Positions 948-21,758 of a DNA stretch of 25,194 bases are shown one piece after another. The notes below the pieces were generated by a model, which searched no databases, had not been told where the DNA came from, and worked only from the letters and a program-made list of their open reading frames with translations. Made by a program: the position numbers and the translations under genes. Positions within the stretch are counted from its first letter, which is position 1. Every line of letters begins with the position of its first letter. Source of the DNA: Armatimonadota bacterium (lineage in GTDB: Bacteria; Armatimonadota; Zipacnadia; Zipacnadales; UBA5352); contig JAYENL010000059.1 of assembly GCA_034722055.1 (NCBI GenBank), positions 21,110 to 46,303 on the forward strand, in the 5' to 3' direction.

Positions 948-1808
948 TCAGGGATGTCCGGCCGGCGGTGCCGGCGCGCTGAGATCATCGGTGGCAGGGG
1001 CATTACGGCCCGCAAGCACCGGACGCGGCAGGATTCGCCCCAGGCGCTCCAGCTCCCTCTTGACGGCCTCGAAGTCGGGGTCGAGGTGGGCGGCCCGGCG
1101 CAGGGCGTCCTCCGCGTCGCCGTACCGGCTCAGGCGGGCGTAAGCCACGCCCACGTGATAGAGGATCTCCGGGTTCTCGCTGGGGCTGAGGCGGCGGGCG
1201 CGCTCCAGGTAGAAGGCGGCATCGCGGTGGTTGCCCATGCGAAGCAGGGCCCACCCGAGGCTGTCCACGAAGCTGGCCTCCAGCGGGAACGCCTTGGTGG
1301 CGCGCTTGACGGCCCGGTAGGCTTCGTCGAGTCTGGCGGAGGCATCGGCCATGACGTAGCCCGCGTTGTTGAGCACGCCTGCATAGTCAGCGCGACCGAT
1401 CTGCCCCGCCTCGTAGAGCCGATGGGCCTCCTCGATGACCTCCAGGCAGATGCGCGCGCCGCGCTCGCGCTCCCCGGCCTGCATGAGGGCCTGGCCGAGG
1501 ACGATGCGGTCGGCGCGGCTGGGGTCCTCCTGGCCCTCGAGCAGCCGGACGGCCTTGCGCCAGGCGCGGGCGCTGACGTAGAGGTGGGCGGCCCGGGATC
1601 GCAGCTCCTCGTCCTGGGGCATCAGCGCCAGCGCCCGGTCGAGCTCTCTCTCGGCCCGGCTGGTGTGGCGGGGCAGCTCCAGCAGGTGCCTCTGCGCCTG
1701 CTGCATGTAGCGCATGGCAACGAACTCGCGGCGCATGCGGTCCGCGGTGCTGCAGCCGCCGAGGAGCACGGTGCAGAGGGCCAGCAGCGTCACTACAGGG
1801 CCCCTCAT
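948..1808 (-). CDS. TPR-repeat lipoprotein (286 aa)
   Basis: Start reassigned to the ATG at 1808, which overlaps the upstream stop (ATGA). Signal peptide with lipobox LLGGC; TPR motifs LNNAGY, DSLGWAL, EILYHVGVAY, AAHLDP. Confidence 0.85.
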   Translation of the reverse strand: MRGPVVTLLALCTVLLGGCSTADRMRREFVAMRYMQQAQRHLLELPRHTSRAERELDRALALMPQDEELRSRAAHLYVSARAWRKAVRLLEGQEDPSRADRIVLGQALMQAGERERGARICLEVIEEAHRLYEAGQIGRADYAGVLNNAGYVMADASARLDEAYRAVKRATKAFPLEASFVDSLGWALLRMGNHRDAAFYLERARRLSPSENPEILYHVGVAYARLSRYGDAEDALRRAAHLDPDFEAVKRELERLGRILPRPVLAGRNAPATDDLSAPAPPAGHP

Positions 1809-4800
1809 GTCAGCGCCCCCGGCGTGAACTGCTCGCCCACGAAGGCCACCACGTCGTAGTACTGCATCCCCAGGACGACCATCTGCTCGGCGGTGGCCGG
1901 GGAGGAGTAGACGGCGTAGGAGGTCGAGTAGCGCCACAGCTCCTCCCCTGTCGCAAGCGAGAGGGCATAGAGCGCACCGTCCTTGGAGCCGGCGAAGACC
2001 ACGCCGCCGCCTATGGCCGGCGAGGCCAGAATCTCGTCCTCGGTCTCGAACTGCCACAGCAGCGCGCCATCCTCCCGGCTGACGGCGTAGACGTTCCCAT
2101 CCATGCAGCCGAAGACCGCCAGGTCCTCCGACAGCGCCGGGCAGCAGCGCACCCGGCCGTCCACCTCAGTGCGCCAGACACGCTGGCGGTCCTGGACTCG
2201 CACCGCGTGCAGGGCCTCATCGTCAGAGCCGAAGTAGACCACGCCGTCGGCGCCACTGGCGGCGGCCGCGATGGGCTCGCCGGCGTCGTACTCCCAGAGC
2301 GGCTCGCCATCGTCCGGCCCCAGGCAGTAGAGCTTCCCGTCCCAGGAGCCGACGATGACCCGACCATCCGCGACCATGGGTGCGGCGGAGATCTCATCGT
2401 CCGCCCGGAAGTCCCAGTGCAGGCGGCCGTTGCGGGCATCGAGGGCCACCAGCCGCCCCTCCTGGTTGCCGGCCAGCACCGCGCCTGCGTGGATGGCGGG
2501 CGAGGAGCGGCTGGGCGCGCCGGTGTCGAAGTCCCAGGCGACGTCGCCCTCGCTGGCCCGGAGGCAGTAGACGCGGCCGTCGCGGGAGCTGATGAAGATC
2601 GCATCTGCTGTCAGGGCCGGGGTGGACTCCACGCGGTCGCCGGTCTTCGTCTCCCAGCGGAGCTGTCCGGAGGTGCTGTCGAGGGCATAGACGTAGCTGT
2701 CGCGGGAGCCGACGCAGACGAGGCCCCGGGCGACCGCTGGTCCGCCCACCACCGGCCCACGGGTCTGGAAGCGCCAGCGCACGCGCAGCGGCGGCGTGAC
2801 CTCGTCGGTGGCCCGTCCGGTCCGAGCCATGTTGGCGTGGAACGCGGCCCACTCCTCGAACTGCTGTGCGCGCTCCTGCTGCTCGAGGACCTCCTGGCGC
2901 ATCTCCCGGACCGTCTCGTGTCCGGTCTCGGTGGTGGCCAGCCGGTCGGCCTCGTCAAGCAGTTCCAGGGCGGGCTCGAACTCCCGCCGCTGGGCGTGCG
3001 CCATGCCCAGCGCGAAGGCGATCTGCGCCGACCGCGGCTGGCTGCGGCGGGCGGACCGGATCTCGTCCACCGCCCGGGGGTCCTGGGCCACGCGGCCCAG
3101 GGCGTAGGCCACGGCCCAGGGCGCGTCGGGGCTCTCTCGCAGTCGCCGCAGGAGGATGCGGGTGGTGGACTCGGCGTCCATCTCCATCAGCGCCTCCGCC
3201 ACCTCGTCGCGCATCTGCTCGTCGTCGTCCCGCAGGGCCTGGGCCAGGGGCCGAAGCGCCCGGCGGCTCTCGATGCGTCCCAGGGCGTAGGCGGCCAGAT
3301 GCCGCTCATCGTCGCTGCCCCGGCCCAGGATGTGCACCAGCTCCCGGTCCAGACCGCGCAGGTACTCCTCGGCCAGCTCTCTGATCTCCTCCTGCTCATC
3401 GTCGAGCAGGGCCACCAGCTCCTCCAGGTAGGCCCGAGACACGTGCGGCCCCAGCGCCCGCAGGGCCGCCTTGCGCACGTGCACCTGGTCGTCGCGGAGC
3501 ATGTCCTTGAGGGTGGGCTCCATCAGCTCCTCCAGCTCGTCGATGCGCCCCAGCCAGTAGCCGACGGCGTGCTCCCGCCGCAGCGCGCTGCGCACGATCA
3601 GCGCCATCTCCTCGGGGGAGATGGTCAGCTCGTTGCGGTAGGCGCCGATCAGTCGCAAGGCTCCCTCCTGCATCAGGAGGCCGAACTTCTGGTAGTTGCC
3701 CAGCTCGCGAGTGAGCAGGTCCTGGACGTCCTTCACCTCGATCTGCCGCTCTGTCATCCAGTCATCGATCTTGCGGGCGATGTAGTCGTGCACGACCTCG
3801 TACTGGCGGCTGTCGGGCCTGCCCACCCTCCGGACCAGTCGCAGGTCCTCGAGGCGGGCCAGGATGCGCTCCACGTTCTCCTCGCTCTGGCCCACCTCCG
3901 CGGCGATACGTTCCACGGTGCGCACCGCCTTCAGCTCCGAGGAGGCCACCATCTGCTTGAGGATGTTGCGTACCAGCCGCCGCTCCCAGGCGGGGAGCTG
4001 GTGGAGGGCGTGCTCGAGGTAGTCGCGCAGGATGCGGTCAGCGCCCTCAAGCTGCTCGTAGGCGTGGGGGCTGATGACGTGCTGGCCCGGGGAGAGGGAC
4101 TGGTAGAGGCGATCCATGACGATCTGCAGCTCGGTGGGCTCGCAGGCGCCGTCGTGGCAGAGGTCCTCCAGGACGCGATCGACCAGCTCCTCCTCCACAG
4201 TGAGCCGGAAGTTGGAGGCGGCCTTCACGGCCGCCACCTTGGCCTGGCGGGAGCTGAGCTTGCGCAGCCGGTAGACGTTGTGGAGGATGGTGGGGAAGTG
4301 CTCCTGCAGATCGTAGAGCCGACCGAGGTAGTCCTCGCGTATGCTGACAAGCACCCGCAGCTCCTCCCCGGACTGTTCCAGGGCCTCGCAGAGCTGCTCG
4401 GCGAACTCCTGCTGCAGGCGGTCGCCGGTCTTCACGAAGTACTCCTCGAACTGGTCGATGATGAGCACCACGGGCCGCCCGGAGACCTCCGCCGCCTCGG
4501 TCAGCAAGTCATGCAGGGACTTGCGGTCGGCCTCCACCTCGCCGAGGTCCTGTTCCCGGAGGGTGTCCGGAACGGCCTCCCGCGTGGCCTCCAGCGGGTC
4601 ATCGCCGCAGCGCACGTAGATGGGCAGCCAGGTGGTGCCGTGCTCCTCATCGGCCTCATCGGCCTCGTCGAGCATCCGCGCCATCACACCCGCGCACAGC
4701 AGCGAGGTCTTGCCCCGCCCCATGGCCCCGAAGAGCACGCTGAGCCTGTGCTCCCGGATCATGTCGATGACGTCCTCGGTCTCCTGCTCGCGGCCGAAGA

Positions 4801-5785
4801 ACAGCTCGGCGTCCTCCACCCGGTAGTGATCGAGGAAGCGGTAGGGCCCGCCGGCGAGCACGCTGAGCGTGGGGCCGGACTTCCTGGCCCTGCGGGTGCT
4901 GCGGCGGTGGCGCCGGACGCGGTCCTCCAGCTCGCTGAAGAAGCTGCTGGGCTCGCCGGGCTCCCGGCACACCAGGTGGCGGGCCGAGGAGCGGGCGGCC
5001 AGCATCTCGGTGACCCGGGGCTGGAGGCGATGATACTCCACGCTGTCGGGGCTCTCCATCTTCAGCTCCTGGAAGAGCTCCTCGTCATTCATGGGGATGA
5101 TGCGGTTGATCCAGAAGACCCGGTCGCCCTCCCGGGGGATGTGGGGGATGAAGGCCCGGTCCCGCTCCGTGTAGCCCACGAACAGCGCCAGGGTCTTGAA
5201 GGCGGCCTCGATCACCGGCCCGATGGCGTCGATGGCAGCATCCACCTCCGCCTGCGCCAGTGGCAGGAAGTCACCAGTCATCGACCCGGCGCACTTGACG
5301 ACCGCCACGCGGGTGGAGCCGGAGATGGCCAGCTCGATCTCGTCGGGGTCGTCCTGGCCAGCCGCCAGAAGGTGGTAGTCCTTCTCGGGCTCCATGTGCT
5401 GGTTGTGCAGCGCCCGCTGGAGCAGGTTCGTGGGGTCGGTGGTGAAGATGGCCGGGAAGTAGCGCTCGGAGATCATCCGGCCCAGACGGGTGTGCGCCTC
5501 GCTGGGCCACCGCTCCTGCACCAGAGGGCGGAGCCGCCGACAGCGCTCAAGGTGTGACGGAACGCGCTCGGCCATCAGCTCCAGCGCGACCTGGCCGGGC
5601 TCCTCCTCGGGCAGCTCCACGTCGTGCTCGCGCGCCCAGTCGATGGCCATGTCGCGCAGCAGGCGCTCGATGGTCAGCTCATCGGGCGAGGTGCGGACGG
5701 CGCTGCCCATGAGGATCACGTGCCGTCCGAGCTCGTTGCGTCGGGCTTTCACATAGTCGGCTATCGCCGATATCATAGCACTCAT
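1805..5785 (-). CDS. Multidomain STAND NTPase: degenerate SIR2-like domain, nSTAND1-type NTPase, HEAT repeats, TPR, 8-repeat PQQ/BamB-like beta-propeller
   Basis: PYRFLDHY..D..FFGRE, Walker A GAMGRGKTS, Walker B LIIDQFEE, SIREDY, YEVVHD. HEAT-like VRKAALRALG and LAAYALGRI. Eight ~40-aa W...P......V..GS.DG..YAL....G repeats. N-terminal SIR2_2-like motif order (ILMGSAV, IFTTD, VVKCAGS, LFVGY..RD). Confidence 0.85.
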   Translation of the reverse strand: MSAMISAIADYVKARRNELGRHVILMGSAVRTSPDELTIERLLRDMAIDWAREHDVELPEEEPGQVALELMAERVPSHLERCRRLRPLVQERWPSEAHTRLGRMISERYFPAIFTTDPTNLLQRALHNQHMEPEKDYHLLAAGQDDPDEIELAISGSTRVAVVKCAGSMTGDFLPLAQAEVDAAIDAIGPVIEAAFKTLALFVGYTERDRAFIPHIPREGDRVFWINRIIPMNDEELFQELKMESPDSVEYHRLQPRVTEMLAARSSARHLVCREPGEPSSFFSELEDRVRRHRRSTRRARKSGPTLSVLAGGPYRFLDHYRVEDAELFFGREQETEDVIDMIREHRLSVLFGAMGRGKTSLLCAGVMARMLDEADEADEEHGTTWLPIYVRCGDDPLEATREAVPDTLREQDLGEVEADRKSLHDLLTEAAEVSGRPVVLIIDQFEEYFVKTGDRLQQEFAEQLCEALEQSGEELRVLVSIREDYLGRLYDLQEHFPTILHNVYRLRKLSSRQAKVAAVKAASNFRLTVEEELVDRVLEDLCHDGACEPTELQIVMDRLYQSLSPGQHVISPHAYEQLEGADRILRDYLEHALHQLPAWERRLVRNILKQMVASSELKAVRTVERIAAEVGQSEENVERILARLEDLRLVRRVGRPDSRQYEVVHDYIARKIDDWMTERQIEVKDVQDLLTRELGNYQKFGLLMQEGALRLIGAYRNELTISPEEMALIVRSALRREHAVGYWLGRIDELEELMEPTLKDMLRDDQVHVRKAALRALGPHVSRAYLEELVALLDDEQEEIRELAEEYLRGLDRELVHILGRGSDDERHLAAYALGRIESRRALRPLAQALRDDDEQMRDEVAEALMEMDAESTTRILLRRLRESPDAPWAVAYALGRVAQDPRAVDEIRSARRSQPRSAQIAFALGMAHAQRREFEPALELLDEADRLATTETGHETVREMRQEVLEQQERAQQFEEWAAFHANMARTGRATDEVTPPLRVRWRFQTRGPVVGGPAVARGLVCVGSRDSYVYALDSTSGQLRWETKTGDRVESTPALTADAIFISSRDGRVYCLRASEGDVAWDFDTGAPSRSSPAIHAGAVLAGNQEGRLVALDARNGRLHWDFRADDEISAAPMVADGRVIVGSWDGKLYCLGPDDGEPLWEYDAGEPIAAAASGADGVVYFGSDDEALHAVRVQDRQRVWRTEVDGRVRCCPALSEDLAVFGCMDGNVYAVSREDGALLWQFETEDEILASPAIGGGVVFAGSKDGALYALSLATGEELWRYSTSYAVYSSPATAEQMVVLGMQYYDVVAFVGEQFTPGALT

Positions 5786-5992: not shown

Positions 5993-6068
5993 TGGTGGGC
6001 CCGGCTGGACTCGAACCAGCGACCAACCGGTTATGAGCCGGTTGCTCTAACCTCTGAGCTACGGGCCC
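5993..6068 (-). tRNA. tRNA with CAT anticodon, most likely tRNA-Ile2 (lysidine-modified)
   Basis: GGGCCCGTAGCTCAGAGGTTAGAGCAACCGGCTCATAACCGGTTGGTCGCTGGTTCGAGTCCAGCCGGGCCCACCA: 76-nt cloverleaf with encoded CCA. G1-C72 is paired, so it is not an initiator. Elongator Met is not formally excluded. Confidence 0.9.
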
Positions 6069-6079
6069 TTTGCAGCCAG

Positions 6080-6108
6080 ATTATACCTCTGCCGCGGCGG
6101 GACGTCAA
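6080..6108 (-). promoter_or_regulatory. Sigma70/SigA promoter of the tRNA
   Basis: TTGACG-N17-TATAAT ending 12 nt upstream of the mature tRNA. Confidence 0.85.
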
Positions 6109-6214: not shown

Positions 6215-8296
6215 CTACTCCAGGTAGTCGCGCAGGACCTTGTTGCGGCTGGGGTGCCGGAGCTTCTTGAGGGCCTTGGCCTCGATCTGCCGGATGCGCT
6301 CGCGGGTGACCTCGAAGATGTGCCCCACCTCCTCCAGCGTCCGCGAGTAGCCGTCCTCGAGGCCGAAGCGGAGCTTCAGCACCTCCCGCTCCCGCTCGGT
6401 GAGGTTGTCGAGGACCTTCTCGAGCTGCTCGCGGAGCACGGAGTTGGAGGCCACGTCCACGGGTGTGCCGACCTCCTCGTCCTGCACGAAGTCCCCCAGG
6501 TGGCTGTCCTCCTCCTCGCCCACCGGGGCCTCCAGCGACAGCGGATCGTGGCCGATGCGGTTGATCTCCGCCACCCGCTCCTCGGGCATGTCCAGCTCCG
6601 CGGCCAGCTCCTCGAGCGTCGGTTCCCTGCCGAGCTGCTGCAGGAGCATCCGGGAGGTGCGGTGCACACGGTTGATGGTCTCCACCATGTGAACGGGGAT
6701 GCGGATGATGCGCCCCTGGTCGGCGATGGCCCGGGTGATGGCCTGGCGGATCCACCACGTTGCATAGGTGCTGAACTTGTAGCCCTTCTTGTAGTCGAAC
6801 TTCTCCACCGCCCGCATCAGCCCCATGTTGCCCTCCTGAATGAGGTCCAGGAAGCTGAGGGTGGAGCGGCCGGCGTACTTGCGGGCGATGCTCACCACCA
6901 GGCGCAGATTCGCGTCTGCGAGGGCCTGAACCGCCTCCTCGTCCCGGAGCTTGAGCGCCTCGGCGTGCACGCTGTGTGGATCGATCTGGTTGTTGAAGTA
7001 CGCGACGACCTCACACCGGGGGCTGACCGCACGCTCCTCGTCGGCAGGACTGCGGCTGACCACCCCCGGCTCGGCGGCCCGCTGCCCGGCGATGAACTCG
7101 AAGCTCACCGGCTCCTGCAGCGGGAAGCCGGCGACGCCCTGCACGCCCTCCTCCCCGGCGTGCAGCTCCACGCGGTAGGTCATTCGGCCCGCCCACGGCT
7201 CCTGGGGCACGATCCGCAGGCAGCGCGCCTCCGGACTGTAGTGCACGGAGACGGCCACCTCCTGGCCCATGGAGTCGGTGACCGACATGGCCTTGCGCCT
7301 CACGCTCCTGGGGACGAGGTCCCGGTCGAGGCGTACGGCCACTGCGGAGGCGGGGTTAACCCCCACAGCGCCCGGCTCCGGGCTGGTCTCCACCACACGG
7401 GGGGCGGCCTTCTGGGTGGTCGTCGAGAACCGGAAGGTGACGTCCTTGCGGACTCGCTCGCCGCCCTCGCCGACCACCCCGTCCTCGCCCCCGCGAACGG
7501 TGACCACGAACTCGTTGCGGTGCAGCAGATTCTCGGAGGGGCGGAAGACGACCGTCTCGGGGTCGTCGCCGGGGCTGACCGTCCCCTCCACCGCCCGGCC
7601 GCGCGTATCCTCTACCTGGATGACGTCATTGGTCACTGACTCCGGCTCGAGGCCGGCGCTGAAGCGCACCTGGATGTCACGGTGTACCTCCACGTCCTCC
7701 TCGTTGTCGGCCGGGCGCGTTTCCCGAACCGTCAGCGGGGCGCTGGAGACCTTGGTGGTGAACGACCAGGAGACGTTGTTGCCCAGGTTCCGGCCGCGAA
7801 TGTCGCACAGGCCGTCCTCGGAGCCGTCGATGGTCACGGTGTAGGTGGTGCCCGGTCGCAGCCGCTTATCGGCCCGGAAGAGCACGCAGTTGCGGGCGGG
7901 ATCGAACCGTGCCGTCCCCTCCCCGAGGTGGATGCGCTTGGCCAGCTCCACCTCCTCGTCGGCGCTGAGCAGCGGCACCTTGCCGATGTTGCGCAGGTAC
8001 ATGCGCACGGAGTCATCGACCGGAACCGAGTCCGGCTCGCTGAAGTCGGTCTCCTCCAGGTCCTCGTCCTCCTCCTTATCCTCCTCCAGAGCATCCTCGG
8101 CGGAGGAGCCGACGCGGACATCCGCCTCCCCCAGCAGCGTGTAGACCTCCTCGATGTCCTCCGTCTCGAGGTCCTCGACGTCGCCGAGCGCATCCTGAAT
8201 CTCCCCGTAGGTCAGGTAGCCCTGCTCCTGGCCCTTGCGGATCAGACCCTTAACCTCGGCGAGGTCTTTGACCTCCTGGTCCTTCCCCTTCGCCAA
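6215..8296 (-). CDS. rpoD: Primary RNA polymerase sigma factor (RpoD/SigA) with an internal Ig-like domain insert
   Basis: Region 1.1 ([12 protein letters not shown]), 1.2 ([17 protein letters not shown]), 2 ([38 protein letters not shown]), 3 and 4 ([22 protein letters not shown]). Directly downstream of dnaG; TTG start with GGGAG RBS. Confidence 0.96.
6944..7921 (-). repeat. In-frame 326-aa insert of Big_5/SbsA-like Ig repeats within rpoD (C-half, 2 full, N-half)
   Basis: Repeat consensus P.V..T.P......V....I.V.F...LDP.SV....I.V.D..G..V.G.V.......V.F.P...L....Y.V...G...G......G......F.F.T appears at aa ~187-292 and ~298-403, with half copies at aa 126-181 and ~409-451. Confidence 0.85.
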
Positions 8297-8353: not shown

Positions 8354-10429
8354 TCACTCGTCCAGGGAGAACGGGTCTCCCTCTTCGATCGCCCACTCAT
8401 CCTCCTCGGGCGCGACAGCATCCTCGGCCGGAGCAGTCTGCTCCTCGTCACCTGGCTCGGGCCGCTGTCTGGAGTGATCCGGCCGAGCCTCGGCTCCGGG
8501 ACGCGGCGCGCGCGCCCCATCGCCGATGTAGCCTCGCCCGCCCGAGCCGCGCAAGCGCCGGCAGGTCTCATAGTAGAGCTTCACAACGGTGTCGTCAGGC
8601 GTCAGCTCGCCGCTGTTGATCCCTGCCTGCACCTGCCGCTCCAGCTCCCGGAAGTCCTCCACGGACATATCGGAACCGCCGTCGGCCACGGGGGCGATCA
8701 GCGGGTCCGCCCCCCCGGAGCGCCGGTGCATCTTCAGCCGCCCGATCATCTGCTGAATCTGCTCGCTGCGGATCTCCTCGTCCTCCCGGCGGGACGGCCG
8801 GACCTCGGTTACGGTCAGTTCCACGCACCGCTTGCGGACCCCTTCCGCCTCGGGCAAAGCCTCGATGAGCGCGTCCACGTCCAGCCGTCCGCGTTCGGCC
8901 ATCTGCTCGCCCACGGCCTCCAGGATGACGGCATCAGTCTCCAGGATCATGTCCCCCGGCTGCAGCTCCGCCACCAGCGTGCGGGCCAGCTCCTGGTCAT
9001 CGAAGGCCTGCGCCAGCAGCTCCGTCTCCGTGCGCAGCAGCCCCTGCCGGGGGCGGCTGAGCGTCTCGCTGATGTAGCTGGAGTCCGAGCCGCCATCCGC
9101 TCGCTGGGTGCGCCGGTCTTTGCGCGAGCGGCGCCCAAACTCCAGCTTGATGGCCCGCTGGACGGACTCCCCGAGCACGCTGTCGCCCTCGGCCCAGAAG
9201 TCCACGGCCCGGCGGAGGTACTCGTCGCGGGCCGTCCAGTCCTGGATTTTCATCAGCACCTCCACGGCGTCGTGCACGGCGGCGCTGCGGCCCGTGGGGC
9301 CGTCAGCGGCGTGGCGCTCGAAGGCGGCTCGCAGCTCGTACTCGATGGGGGAGATGCGTTCCTGCAGCAGGTCGCGGAAGGCATCGACGCCATGTGTCTT
9401 GACGAACTCGTCGGGGTCCATGTTCTCGGGCAGCACGATGAGGCTGACGGCGACGTCGGAGCCCTCGAAGACCTCCAGGTTCCTCAGCGCCGCCCGGGCG
9501 CCGGCGGCGTCAGCGTCGTAGACCAGCACCACCTCGTCGGCGTAGCGTCCCACCAGGTCGAGCTGCTGCTTGGTCAGCGCCGTGCCCAGCCCGGCCACCA
9601 CGTTGCGCAGCCCCGCCTGATGGAGGGCGATGACGTCGGTGTAGCCCTCCACGATCAGCGCCCGCTTCTCGGCAACGATGGCGTCGCGCGCGAGGTCCAG
9701 CGCGTAGAGGGCCCGGCGCTTGCGGAACAGCGGCGTCTCCGGCGAGTTCAGGTACTTGGCCGGGTTCTCGGGATCGAGCGTGCGCCCGCCGAAGGCGATG
9801 GGCCGCCCCGACAGGTCGTTGATCGGGAAGATGATTCGATTGCGGAAGGTGTCGTAGTGCCCCCCGCGGTCGCTGGCCTTGGCCAGCCCGGCCTCCTCGG
9901 CCAGGGCGGCGTTGATGCCCTGCGCCGCGAGCGTGTTGAGCAGGTCGTCCCATGACTCCAGCGCGTAGCCGATCTGGAAGCTGTCGATGGCCGACCGATT
10001 GAAGCTCCTCTCGCGCAGATAGTCCCGCGCGCGCTCGGCCTCTGGGTGCTCCAACAGGTTCTTGACGAAGTGGTCCCGCGCGATCTCGTTGGCGCGTTCG
10101 AGTATCTCGCGGCGCTCCCGGCGCGCATCCGCCTGCGGGTCAGCCCGGTAGGACACGCCCGCCCGGCGGGCCAGCATCCGCATGGCCTCCGGGAAGCTCA
10201 GGCCCTCCTGCCGCATCACGAACGAGAACAGGTCCCCGCCCTCGCCGCAGCCGAAGCAGTGCCAGAAGCCTCGCTCGGGGTCAACGTAGAACGAGGGGGT
10301 CTTCTCCTGGTGGAAGGGACAGAGGCCCTTGAGCCTCGAGCCCGCCCGCTCCAGCCGTACGTACTGGCCGATTACCTCGGCCAGGTCCAGGCGCTCGCGA
10401 ATCTCCTCTTTGGTGTCATCGAAGTCCAT
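8354..10429 (-). CDS. dnaG: DNA primase
   Basis: Zn-binding CPFH..KTPSF...[28 protein letters not shown], Toprim VEGYTD and YDADAAG. Start set at [16 protein letters not shown] (ATG 10429), not the ORF-track start at 10618. Confidence 0.96.
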
Positions 10430-17564: not shown

Positions 17565-18674
17565 CTACCGCGCCGAGACGTGCTCCTCCCAGCGCCGCTC
17601 AACATACCCGCCGAGCTGATCCTTGAAGCGGTCGATGCTGAAGCGCAGCGCGTTGCTGCGGCAGACCTCCGGGTCGAACCGCCCCGGGTCGAAGTCCTCC
17701 AGGGCCGCCACCAGCGCTTCCACGGTCTGCTCCTCGAAGAACAGGCAGGTCCGGCCCTCGACCATGGTCTCGACGGCGCCGCCGGCCCGGTAGGCGATCA
17801 CCGGCCTGCCGGTGGCATTGGCCTCCAGCGGCGTGAGGCCGAAGTCCTCCTCCTGAGGCATGACGAAGCCGCGGCAGCGCTGATAGTAGCCCACGATCTG
17901 CTCGTCGGGCACCCTTCCGCACATCTCCACGGTGGGTCCCGCCAGGTCGCAGAGGGACTCGAACTCCGGGCCGTCGCCCACCACCTTCAGCGGGAGCCGC
18001 AGCTCGTTGCAGGCCCGGACGGCCAGGTCCACGCGCTTGTAGGGATTGAGCGCGGAGACCACCAGCAGGTAGTCCTCCGCCCCGTCCTCGGGCACAAACT
18101 TGTCGGTGTCCACAGGCGGGTGGATGACCAGGTCCGGCTCCCGGAGGTAGGCCTCTCGCATCCGCCGCCGCGTGGTCTCGGAGATGGCCACCATGTATTG
18201 AGGACGCTGCGCGGTGCGCCGGTCCCACTCGCGCAGCGACGGGATAGTGGCACGAACGAAGGCCTTCGCGAGCCCCCCGGTGCGCAGGGAGTCGATGTAC
18301 TCGTCGGCCCAGAACCACAGAAAGCGCGCCGGGCTGTAGCAGTAGGCGATGTGCAACGCGCCGTCGCGCTGTCGCGCGCTTTTGGACCATCCGCAGCTTG
18401 AGCTGATGACCAGATCGAACTCGCTCAGGTCCAGGTAGTCGATGGCCACCGGCATGAGCAGGTACAGCTTCCTGTAGAGCCGGAGCGAGCCGGGGATGTC
18501 CTGCAGCAGCGACGGGCGGATGTCCCACTCGCGGAGGCGGTCCTCCATCTGCTCGGGGTCGTACAGAATGGTGAAGACCGGCGCCTCCGGCCACATCTGG
18601 TGCATGACATCGACCACGCGCTCGGCGCCCCGAATGCCCTGCACCAGATAGTCGTGGACGATCGCCAGGTTCAC
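17565..18674 (-). CDS. Glycosyltransferase family 4 (GT-B)
   Basis: GTG start overlapping the thiC stop (GTGA); LAIVHDYL...[41 protein letters not shown]. Confidence 0.92.
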
Positions 18675-19954
18675 GGAGCCGCCCTCTCCCGCTCCGCAAG
18701 CCGGCTGGCGCGGATGGAGCAGAACCGCCCGCACATCGAACAGGCGGGGTCATCCACCGACGGCCTGTCGCCGCGCTTGACCCGGAATCGCCCGGGGTCC
18801 AGCGCCAGGTCCTCCATGGTCGCCCAGTCCAGCGCGCGGCGTGCCCGGGACATCTCGTCGTCCCACTCCTGCGCGCCGGGGACGCCCTTGACGAGGTCGG
18901 CCGCGTGTGCGGCGATGCGCGATGCCATCACGCCCTCGATGACGTCCTCGACAGTGGGCAGCCCGATGTGCTCGGCGGGAGTAACGTAACACAGGTAGTC
19001 GGCGCCGGCCGCCGCGCAGATGGCGCCGCCGATGGCTCCGGTGATGTGATCGTAGCCGGGCGCAGCGTCGGTGACCAGCGGTCCCAGCACGTAGAAGGGC
19101 GCATCGTGGCAGAGGCGCTTCTCGAGGATCACGTTGGCCTCGATCTCGTCCAGAGGCACGTGCCCTGGCCCCTCCACGAAGGCCTGCACGCCCGCCTCGC
19201 GGGCCCGCAGGACCAGCTCGCCGAGCACGCGCGTCTCGGCCACCTGTCCGGCGTCCGTGGCATCGGCCAGGGCGCCGGGCCGGAGCCCGTCGCCGAGGCT
19301 GATGGCCACCCCGTAGCGGCGGAGGATGTCCAGAACGTCATCATAGCGCTCGTACAGCGGGTTCTCGGCGTCGTTCTCGCGCATCCACGCCGCCATCAGG
19401 CTGCCGCCGCGGCTGACAATCCCTCCCACGCGGGCCTGGGTCTTGAGCGCGGCCACGGTCTCGCGCGTCACGCCGCAGTGCAGCGTCTGGAAATCGACGC
19501 CGTCGGCCGCCTGCCGCTCGATGACCTCCAGGACAGTGTCCGGGTGCATTCGCAGCATGTCGCCGTGGCGCTCATCGGCCTCGGCGAAGGCCTGATAGAG
19601 GGGAACGGTGCCCATCACGACAGGGCACTCGGCTCGGATGGCCTGGCGGTCCTCGTCGAGGTCGCCGCCGGTGGACAGGTCCATGACGGTGTCGGCGCCG
19701 GAGGCCACCGCGGCCTCGAGCTTCTCCACCTCCCCCTCCACGTCAGGATAGTCGGGGGAGGTGCCGATGTTGGCGTTGATCTTGGTGCGCAGGCCCTTGC
19801 CGATGCCCAGCGGCTTGACGCCGTCGCCGCCCATGGCGACCACCGTGCCGGCCGCCACGCGCTCTCGGAGGTCATCGGCGTCAGTCTTCTCGTCCTGCGC
19901 GATCTGTGTCAGAACCTCGTCAGCGATACGTAAGCCCGTCATCTGCGGGCCCAT
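18671..19954 (-). CDS. thiC: Phosphomethylpyrimidine synthase ThiC family (radical SAM)
   Basis: [64 protein letters not shown]-terminal CSMCGRFC. Start placed at ATG 19954 by the GGAG RBS (19942 is an alternative). BzaA/B/F paralogues are not excluded. Confidence 0.88.
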
Positions 19955-19974
19955 CAGGATCGTCTCCAATGCAC

Positions 19975-20122
19975 GCCCTGTTCTCGCTGCGGCTACTGCT
20001 TGCATAACCCCGCGGAGGTCGGGCATCCCTGCCCGACAGAGCCGTTCCCATCGGTTGCGAAACCGCCTGCACTGCTCCTCGCGGGGAAAAGAGAGAGCCC
20101 ACAAAGCGCAGCCCATGGGCTC
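19975..20122 (-). ncRNA. Structured leader or small RNA between a SigA promoter and thiC (family unidentified)
   Basis: Several nested stems and a terminator-like hairpin with G-U pairs that favour the minus strand; see findings. Confidence 0.45.
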
Positions 20123-20128
20123 GGAATC

Positions 20129-20157
20129 ATTATACACGACGCACGCAGCGGCGGCAA
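20129..20157 (-). promoter_or_regulatory. Sigma70/SigA promoter upstream of thiC
   Basis: TTGCCG-N17-TATAAT. Confidence 0.75.
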
Positions 20158-20316
20158 GTTCCCGTGGGCCCATCGGGGGGCCTCGCCGTCATGCGGATCG
20201 TCTTTGCGCGCCACACCCCGGACCAGCGCCAGGGTGTGTATACGCCGGCCCACCCGATCCGCCGAGACCGCCTGCCGCCAATCTCCCCGCGGCCTTCGCG
20301 AAGGACCTTGGGGAGG

Positions 20317-21470: not shown

Positions 21471-21659
21471 CCTCCTGCGCCAGCGGTGGAGAGTGGCAGA
21501 AGTTGACGTATTGCCTCGCTGCACGACTTCCTGCGTGTCCCGAGCGTGGAGGGGCCGCCGCGAGCGGGCGAGCTGTGGCGGCGGGAAGAGGCGCGTAGGC
21601 GCCTCCGGTGTGAGGTCGCGAGCGGAGCGAGCGACTGAGACTGCAACGCAGTCTCCACA

Positions 21660-21758
21660 GGTTCCACCCCGGCCCACTTCCCCCGCCTTCGGCCCGAAGG
21701 TGGGCGAGGGCGTCCCCCTCCCAACTCAATGCGTCGTACTCTGGGCCGGGGTGGAACC
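21660..21758. repeat. 17-bp perfect inverted repeat enclosing an inner hairpin
   Basis: GGTTCCACCCCGGCCCA (21660-21676) and TGGGCCGGGGTGGAACC (21742-21758). Confidence 0.8.

Follow-up and report, generated by a model that had tools for sequence, protein, structure and literature searches.

A circularly permuted immunoglobulin-like insert in the primary sigma factor of an Armatimonadota class is predicted to close into a three-domain ring

How can a housekeeping sigma factor carry, between two of its conserved regions, 326 residues of immunoglobulin-like sequence that begin and end in the middle of a domain, and what might such an insert do there? The question is raised by a 25,194-nucleotide stretch of an Armatimonadota bacterium genome (assembly GCA_034722055.1, contig JAYENL010000059.1, positions 21,110 to 46,303; hereafter the window), in which rpoD (6215..8296, minus strand, TTG start) encodes a 693-aa sigma70 protein. 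Region 1.1 of this protein (aa 13-83; 8048..8260, minus strand; PF03979) is followed by region 1.2 (aa 95-125; 7922..8014, minus strand; PF00140), which ends at the left junction of the insert, while profiles and alignment indicate that regions 2, 3 and 4 (aa 452-693; 6218..6943, minus strand) are intact and highly conserved. PF03979, PF00140, PF04542, PF04539 and PF04545 all match above their Pfam cut-offs, as does the RpoD C-terminal equivalog model TIGR02393 (379.2 bits against a cut-off of 354). The full-length RpoD models score below cut-off (510 against 572), and an insert-less SigA from the related genome G272 likewise falls below 572, scoring 517. The dnaG primase gene (8354..10429, minus strand; start taken as the first Met before the zinc finger) lies directly upstream of rpoD, the usual arrangement of a housekeeping sigma gene. 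The source genome (92.7% complete) yielded no further group-1 sigma, its next sigma-core matches being 29-30% identical or only 82 aa long. By sequence, the 693-aa protein is a group-1 sigma70 (RpoD/SigA) with a predicted housekeeping role, and its homologues bear the source names Armatimonadota or Armatimonadia.

Downstream of rpoD, a tRNA gene with anticodon CAT (5993..6068, minus strand) is preceded by a near-consensus sigma70 promoter-like site (6080..6108, minus strand; 11/12, 17-nt spacer) that fits ordinary -35/-10 recognition in this organism; sites of this type numbered 2 against 0.2 expected. Several other features of the window were also observed. A 1326-aa protein (1805-5785, minus strand) combines an nSTAND1 NTPase, HEAT repeats and a PQQ beta-propeller and is followed by a TPR protein; its N-terminal ~300 aa appear SIR2-like by eye and have no Pfam match. 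An ORF that is ThiC-like by eye (18671-20173, minus strand) has no TPP riboswitch match upstream in Rfam. A perfect 17-bp inverted repeat (21660-21676 and 21742-21758) is intergenic, and the stretch beside it (~21597-21670, plus strand) resembles a decayed tRNA by eye, with no match there from ARAGORN or Rfam.

The insert comprises aa 126-451 (window 6944-7921, minus strand) and lies between ...RIHLG and DEEAVQ..., splitting a joint between G and DEEA whose Gly and Asp are contiguous in SigA without the insert. The Big_5 profile PF13205 matched the sigma with 135.5 bits over three stretches, above cut-off, while the helical NCR profile PF04546 was not matched in the 693-aa protein at E 0.01. 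The first-pass annotation, made from the DNA letters, had described the insert as a C-terminal half-domain, two full domains and an N-terminal half-domain, with the halves complementary except for a turn of about six residues. Shuffle-tested alignment bore out this order, all on the minus strand: a C-terminal half (aa 126-182, unit positions 53-108; 7751..7921), a full repeat R1 (aa 186-292; 7421..7741; PF13205), a second full repeat R2 (aa 298-403; 7088..7405) and an N-terminal half (aa 409-451, unit positions 2-44; 6944..7072). Both full repeats are modelled with a CopC-like fold (Z 13.0, rmsd 2.1, 95 aligned for R1; Z 13.3, rmsd 1.6, 94 aligned for R2). The N-terminal half matches only positions 1-46 of R1 and R2 and the C-terminal half only 52-108, each with z = 6.0-10.6 against 1000 shuffles, none of which equalled the real score. 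When the two halves were rejoined, z against the full repeats rose to 16.7 and 13.0, compared to 14.3 for R1 against R2, and HHalign profile-profile comparison (129 rows) recovered one complete unit over 101 columns (99.74% against R1, 99.83% against R2). The sole gap in this alignment spans 6-7 residues at the D-x-x-G-R-x-V beta-hairpin, and D452, the first Asp of sigma region 2, occupies the position of the hairpin Asp of the full repeats. The alignment-derived linkers between successive units are 5 aa in 129/129 rows, 6 aa in 123/129 and 6 aa in 129/129.

Two explanations for the insert were rejected. An assembly artefact is contradicted by single contigs from three sequencing runs (X1, X2 and X3, all from one study, X1 possibly being the source) that bridge both junctions, with no joint that skips the insert. 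Inteins are marked by a HINT domain, a Cys or Ser at the start and His-Asn at the end before Cys, Ser or Thr; here there is no HINT match in Pfam, and the insert starts with Glu-Gly and ends with Lys-Leu-Arg before Asp, which argues against an intein or other self-removing insert.

Both ends of the insert fall within one and the same beta-hairpin of the repeat, so that the half-domains at its termini would fold together in cis as a third domain. After leaving sigma helix 1.2, the chain would follow a closed triangular path through three Ig-like domains and re-enter helix 2.1 beside the point of entry, and because it returns there, sigma domain 2 would stay intact. That the halves close into such a three-domain ring, with adjacent attachment points, had been suggested from the repeat order, and we consider it very probable. 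In a full-length AlphaFold2 model (112 rows), the insert blocks reach pLDDT 89-96, and the modelled sigma domain 2, its parts on either side of the insert taken together, superposes on RpoS 5h6x_B (96/96 aligned, rmsd 1.2, model range 105-527), as well as on 3ugo_A (111 aligned, rmsd 0.9) and 1sig_A (90 aligned, rmsd 1.1). Because the superposition spans the insert, the two insert ends are adjacent within one modelled chain. Prediction of the insert as a monomer, one of the checks put forward in the first-pass annotation, yielded a confident fold even when no sigma tether was present (pLDDT 95.7, pTM 0.87); the five models were concordant (pLDDT 94.7-95.7), with no residue below 70. In the models the insert is all beta, and R1 and R2 keep their native register and a CopC-like fold (Z 11.5-13.3 across the family comparisons). 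The evidence for closure consists of predicted models and sequence; the fold-search rows are sequential, none of them spanning both halves. Among the matches listed, no solved three-domain ring resembles the model (best TM to query 0.32), the only solved relative found by sequence is one CopC chain (E 0.77), and the nearest cluster in the ESM Atlas is an Armatimonadota SigA family.

The pairing of the two halves was also examined by two-chain prediction and by covariation. When supplied as two chains, the halves scored 0.36, compared to 0.00 for the best control, with runs sharing at least 96% of contacts and a partner pLDDT of 68. The mark applied here was reached by 116/157 solved pairs and 2/215 mismatched pairs, and scores of 0.60 or below among those that reached it were found for 18/157 solved pairs and for both mismatches. 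The result is therefore weak support, as passes at this level frequently turn out false when the pairing was not already probable. For covariation, 30 pairs of positions across the break were learnt from 1044 unsplit array units. These pairs gave a mean z of 0.69 between the two halves (p 0.00025), the same value as within R1 (0.69). However, among six mismatched pairings of N- and C-terminal halves, that of the N-terminal half of R2 with the C-terminal half of R1 was about equally high (z 0.64, p 0.0002) and a further two reached nominal significance (p 0.008 and 0.014), and the covariation evidence is accordingly weak as well.

Stronger evidence from sequence is provided by a family of sigma paralogues that retain only one domain. 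One genome of the class, G277, encodes both a three-domain RpoD and a divergent sigma paralogue with 39% core identity (L163:2234-3745, G277:C361, minus strand; family proteins P0297-P0302), which has the same two junctions and both Big_5 halves but neither full repeat. The family comprises 13 sequences in 5 clusters, 44-100% identical over the query region, and G277 is the only one of 79 class genomes to carry a member. The core residues of both halves are conserved in these proteins, whereas the linker that replaces R1 and R2 is poorly conserved and is 26-31 aa long, compared to 4-6 aa in the three-domain form; 99% of 1135 linkers in Big_5 arrays are 10 aa or shorter. Such a long linker is what a connection from one end of an Ig domain to the other within the same chain would require, as expected if the halves pair in cis as one domain. 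Topologically, R1 and R2 would then act as the linker of the split domain. We regard this family as the best sequence evidence that the halves make one domain. Together with the fixed breakpoints and unit number described below, it adds to the models in favour of the ring, to which the two-chain and covariation results lend weak support.

The one-domain form seems more likely to have arisen by deletion from the three-domain form than to have preceded it, although trees place the one-domain paralogues on very long branches and do not settle the order of the two forms. These proteins are without region 1.1, have a degenerate region 1.2 and carry a single permuted Big_5 domain; they would constitute an alternative sigma family derived from or related to the three-domain RpoD. 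The paralogue gene of G277 is located upstream of ORFs that are pyrR-like and dihydroorotase-like by eye. A different composite sigma was observed in another genome (L164:1247-3223, plus strand; G274:C35), where a 659-aa frame with ECF-type sigma regions 2 and 4 adds a bifunctional-nuclease (BFN/DUF151) domain and group-1-like sigma regions 1.2, 2 and 3 without an Ig insert.

The first-pass annotation had offered, as an alternative to the ring, that the halves complement each other in trans and oligomerise sigma. In that arrangement, region 1.2 and the C-terminal half of one sigma would pair with the N-terminal half and region 2 of another, giving head-to-tail dimers or chains. The weak docking of the halves as two separate chains is compatible with it, and the model bends more sharply than solved tandem Ig arrays do (two-domain rmsd 5-12 A against SbsC and LdtMt2), so that closure of the triangle needs unusual bends. 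Nevertheless, the monomer models close the loop with high confidence, swapping the halves would swap sigma domain 2 as well, and a short linker would both suffice for swapping and force it, whereas the paralogue linker is 26-31 aa. We consequently regard trans pairing as highly improbable.

An arrangement in shifted register, in which the C-terminal half pairs with the N-terminal part of R1, the C-terminal part of R1 with the N-terminal part of R2, and the C-terminal part of R2 with the N-terminal half to form three contiguous circular permutants and no ring, is scarcely credible: opposite ends of an Ig domain cannot be joined by a linker of 4-6 aa, the models keep R1 and R2 in native register, and although two of the three pairings covary (z 0.40, p 0.014 and z 0.64, p 0.0002), the third does not (z -0.27). 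Pot II inhibitors and tandem domain swaps provide precedent for such a register (PMC2259423, PMC6863430), and joining of the termini is rated unfavourable for I27 and FN3 in table 1 of the latter (PMC6863430).

Returning to the closed ring, its distribution was surveyed among homologues and genomes. An insert of 324-340 aa with both breakpoints at identical columns is present in 119 of the best 120 of 2925 passing homologues (self included), and in 68 it is exactly 326 aa; the one exception is a partial protein. Breakpoint and repeat number, the constancy of which in orthologues had been proposed as a further check, are thus fixed throughout this set. Within the class, the insert was matched in 72/79 genomes and in all 41 with completeness of at least 90% and contamination of at most 5%. 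The seven without a match are three in which no RpoD was found (G001, G006 and G024), three that are incomplete, and G272 (100% complete, 6% contaminated), which encodes a plain 378-aa SigA without insert. No loss and no two-domain form occurred among the 119 full-length homologues or the 72 class genomes, 2-3 Mb genomes included. In a sample of 401 genomes from the phylum, the insert matched 51/56 class genomes and 10/345 others, and the 7 of these 10 that were inspected are all Big_5 array proteins without sigma motifs. A scan of genome contigs returned mostly ordinary SigA, with the insert in 1/80 loci. Among RpoDs of other Armatimonadota families (15/20 fetched loci parsed), six (L039-L042, L048, L049) carry an unrelated, helical-looking insert of ~230-250 aa and one has no insert at all.

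In a sigma-core tree of 50 rows, all 24 rows with the insert fall into a single clade (98/95), whose long-branched sister is G272 (96/87), and the six rows with a helical-looking NCR form another clade (100/95). Because the insert-bearing cores form one clade, a single origin of the insert is the simplest reading. Comparison of substitution rates showed the insert to be under purifying selection at the sequence level, with pN below pS in all four insert segments and in 8/8 pairwise comparisons; its sequence nevertheless varies far more than that of the sigma core (mean top-residue frequency of 0.46-0.59 in the insert compared to 0.84-0.94 in the core).

The closest non-sigma relatives of the insert are long tandem Big_5 arrays, many of which have, by eye, signal- or lipoprotein-like N-termini, while the carrier RpoD has no signal-like N-terminus. 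The period of donor-type arrays is mostly 107-109 aa, so that an insert of 326 aa corresponds to three periods less the hairpin. We propose that a stretch of a tandem Big_5 array, three periods long and in register with the repeats, originally part of a secreted or lipoprotein-type surface protein, would have been inserted once, early in this Armatimonadota class, at the NCR site of the housekeeping sigma. It may have been taken up as an excised circle, or a longer piece may have been inserted and trimmed later. GC3 of the insert is 0.91, equal to that of the N-terminal part of the gene, and judged by this composition the inserted DNA is fully ameliorated. A recent mobile insertion was rejected, since GC3 is unexceptional and the junctions show only short GGG/GA matches and no longer target duplication. 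Apart from one weak match, the source genome yielded no further intact Big_5 array protein.

What the ring might do is suggested in part by its site. The E. coli-type NCR lies at the same place, between regions 1.2 and 2.1, and is likewise a large, lineage-dependent addition to an otherwise intact sigma domain 2, with lengths of 247 aa in E. coli sigma70, 72 aa in T. aquaticus and ~30 aa in mycobacteria. In E. coli, the NCR has been reported to touch DNA at -16/-17 through R157 and to aid melting (10.1101/256826), to bind the acidic beta' clamp-toe through basic residues in promoter escape, and also to contact an activator (PMC8113463). By analogy, there is about an even chance that the ring is an NCR-like element on sigma domain 2 that contacts upstream DNA or the beta' clamp. 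Lys and Arg number 11.5-14.7 per insert unit, compared to 3.9 in 1044 array units (three to four times as many), the Ser/Thr content is half that of array units, and the array-conserved, mutually coupled positions E29, D91 and N95 are lost or changed. In the arrays, these three residues are a possible metal site, for which the inter-domain Ca sites of SiiE (PMC5466336) offer an analogy. R260, N261, K296, R300, D324 and R325 are conserved in a position-specific manner, several of them around the R1-R2 junction. Furthermore, beta' of the source genome has, at the clamp position, a helical insert that is strongly acidic; inserts at this position are known in other lineages (PMC5511352). The NCR-equivalent site, the gained basic residues and the acidic beta' insert together lead us to favour an NCR-like contact over the alternatives considered below. 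On the other hand, the insert units nevertheless have a net charge between neutral and slightly acidic (-0.2 to -2.8), the sequence of the insert is, as given above, much more variable than that of the core, the beta' insert also occurs in lineages without the ring, no equivalent of R157 can be assigned in the Big_5 insert, and the conserved basic residues may merely be ring-closing salt bridges that hold the bends.

The RpoC clamp insert of the source genome (L144, G000:C330:11827-16635) is 160 aa long and helical-looking with 50 acidic residues, and those elsewhere in the phylum are shorter and less acidic. Its charge is -31 in each of two ring-bearing genomes, compared to -11 to -18 in four others. 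Co-variation of the ring with the clamp insert was rejected as a candidate, the clamp insert being phylum-wide; because only 6/11 loci were parsed, G272 not among them, we make no claim on such co-variation. Replacement of CarD by the ring was likewise rejected, as nearly all genomes lack CarD_C, whether they carry the insert or not (CarD_C in 1/79 class genomes and 10/251 phylum genomes). Eight of the 10 phylum matches to CarD_C are weak and fall in one family, and in a control it matched 5/14 named genomes.

Less probable, but still to be reckoned with, is that the insert is an entrenched passenger, a self-closing ring that is tolerated, whose conservation reflects folding only and which persists because nothing short of precise excision would keep the essential gene working. 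The size of the NCR varies freely among phyla (29-247 aa; 10.1101/256826), and within this phylum the site holds nothing, a helical-looking insert of ~230-250 aa, or 326 aa of Ig sequence. Moreover, the paralogue family has shed two of the three domains and the sister genome G272 manages without any. Against this, neither loss nor a two-domain form appears in the homologues and class genomes surveyed above, and surface-type residues are conserved position by position in the distal repeats, though possibly for structural reasons. It is unlikely that the ring instead docks or senses a regulator specific to the lineage, be it an activator, an anti-sigma, an RNA or a metal, in the way that sigma domain 2 or the NCR serves EcmrR, RbpA or Crl. 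Such a role would suit Ig domains, which are interaction modules and here CopC-like in fold, and both the NCR as an activator contact (PMC8113463) and RbpA (10.1101/256826) offer precedent. However, no partner was found, the source genome offers, as noted, no second intact array protein, the array-conserved acidic positions are lost, and the insert has no invariant set of His, Met or Cys.

The ring shares features with several known systems. Unlike the helical NCR, it is all-beta Big_5 sequence of surface-protein origin, internally repeated and circularly permuted. With Big_5/SbsA Ig-like arrays (PF13205) it has family, period and fold in common, the CopC-like fold and the Ig domains of SbsC and LdtMt2 being its fold relatives; in contrast with those arrays, it is cytoplasmic, sits inside a transcription factor, is fixed at three units, is predicted to be closed, and is rich in Arg and Lys with the coupled array positions altered. 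The predicted topology has a parallel in Pot II (potato type II) proteinase-inhibitor precursors, a 'bracelet' of tandem repeats whose opening and closing half-repeats combine into one non-contiguous domain, the clasp of the ring (PMC2259423). The bracelet is of an unrelated fold and kingdom and is a free, proteolytically processed precursor (PMC2259423), whereas the sigma insert is permanent and has its clasp hairpin replaced by the host protein. Insertions in RNA polymerase beta and beta' (BEAN, HABAS, beta'i1/i2) are likewise lineage-fixed domains, and HABAS includes circularly permuted topologies, but these reside in core subunits and have other folds (PMC11515920, PMC5511352); the text of PMC11515920 does not contain 'sigma', 'immunoglobulin' or 'Ig-like'. 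Among listings and abstracts of the open literature, no description of Ig domains in a primary sigma was found. Big_5 on these sigma proteins is already present in database annotations, and what is new here is the one-domain paralogue family (5 clusters) that keeps both halves but neither full domain.

The NCR is known in detail from few model organisms, and in the solved structures matched here it is helical; an all-beta, surface-derived NCR fixed in a class implies that this site accepts unrelated folds. We put it just short of an even chance that a captured surface Ig array has become a working part of the initiation machine of this class, doing the job of an NCR, whether by touching DNA or the clamp or by docking a regulator, with an unrelated fold, and that the series of zero, one and three domains reveals the self-closing permuted repeat as a general, length-adjustable route for building modules into an essential protein. 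The insert might also serve as a molecular marker for the class; it is absent from one deep-branching member. The same natural series is suited to asking what the NCR does in open-complex formation and promoter escape, and, as a clear example from nature of how circular permutation can make a domain insertion tolerable, the ring would be of interest for protein evolution and design.
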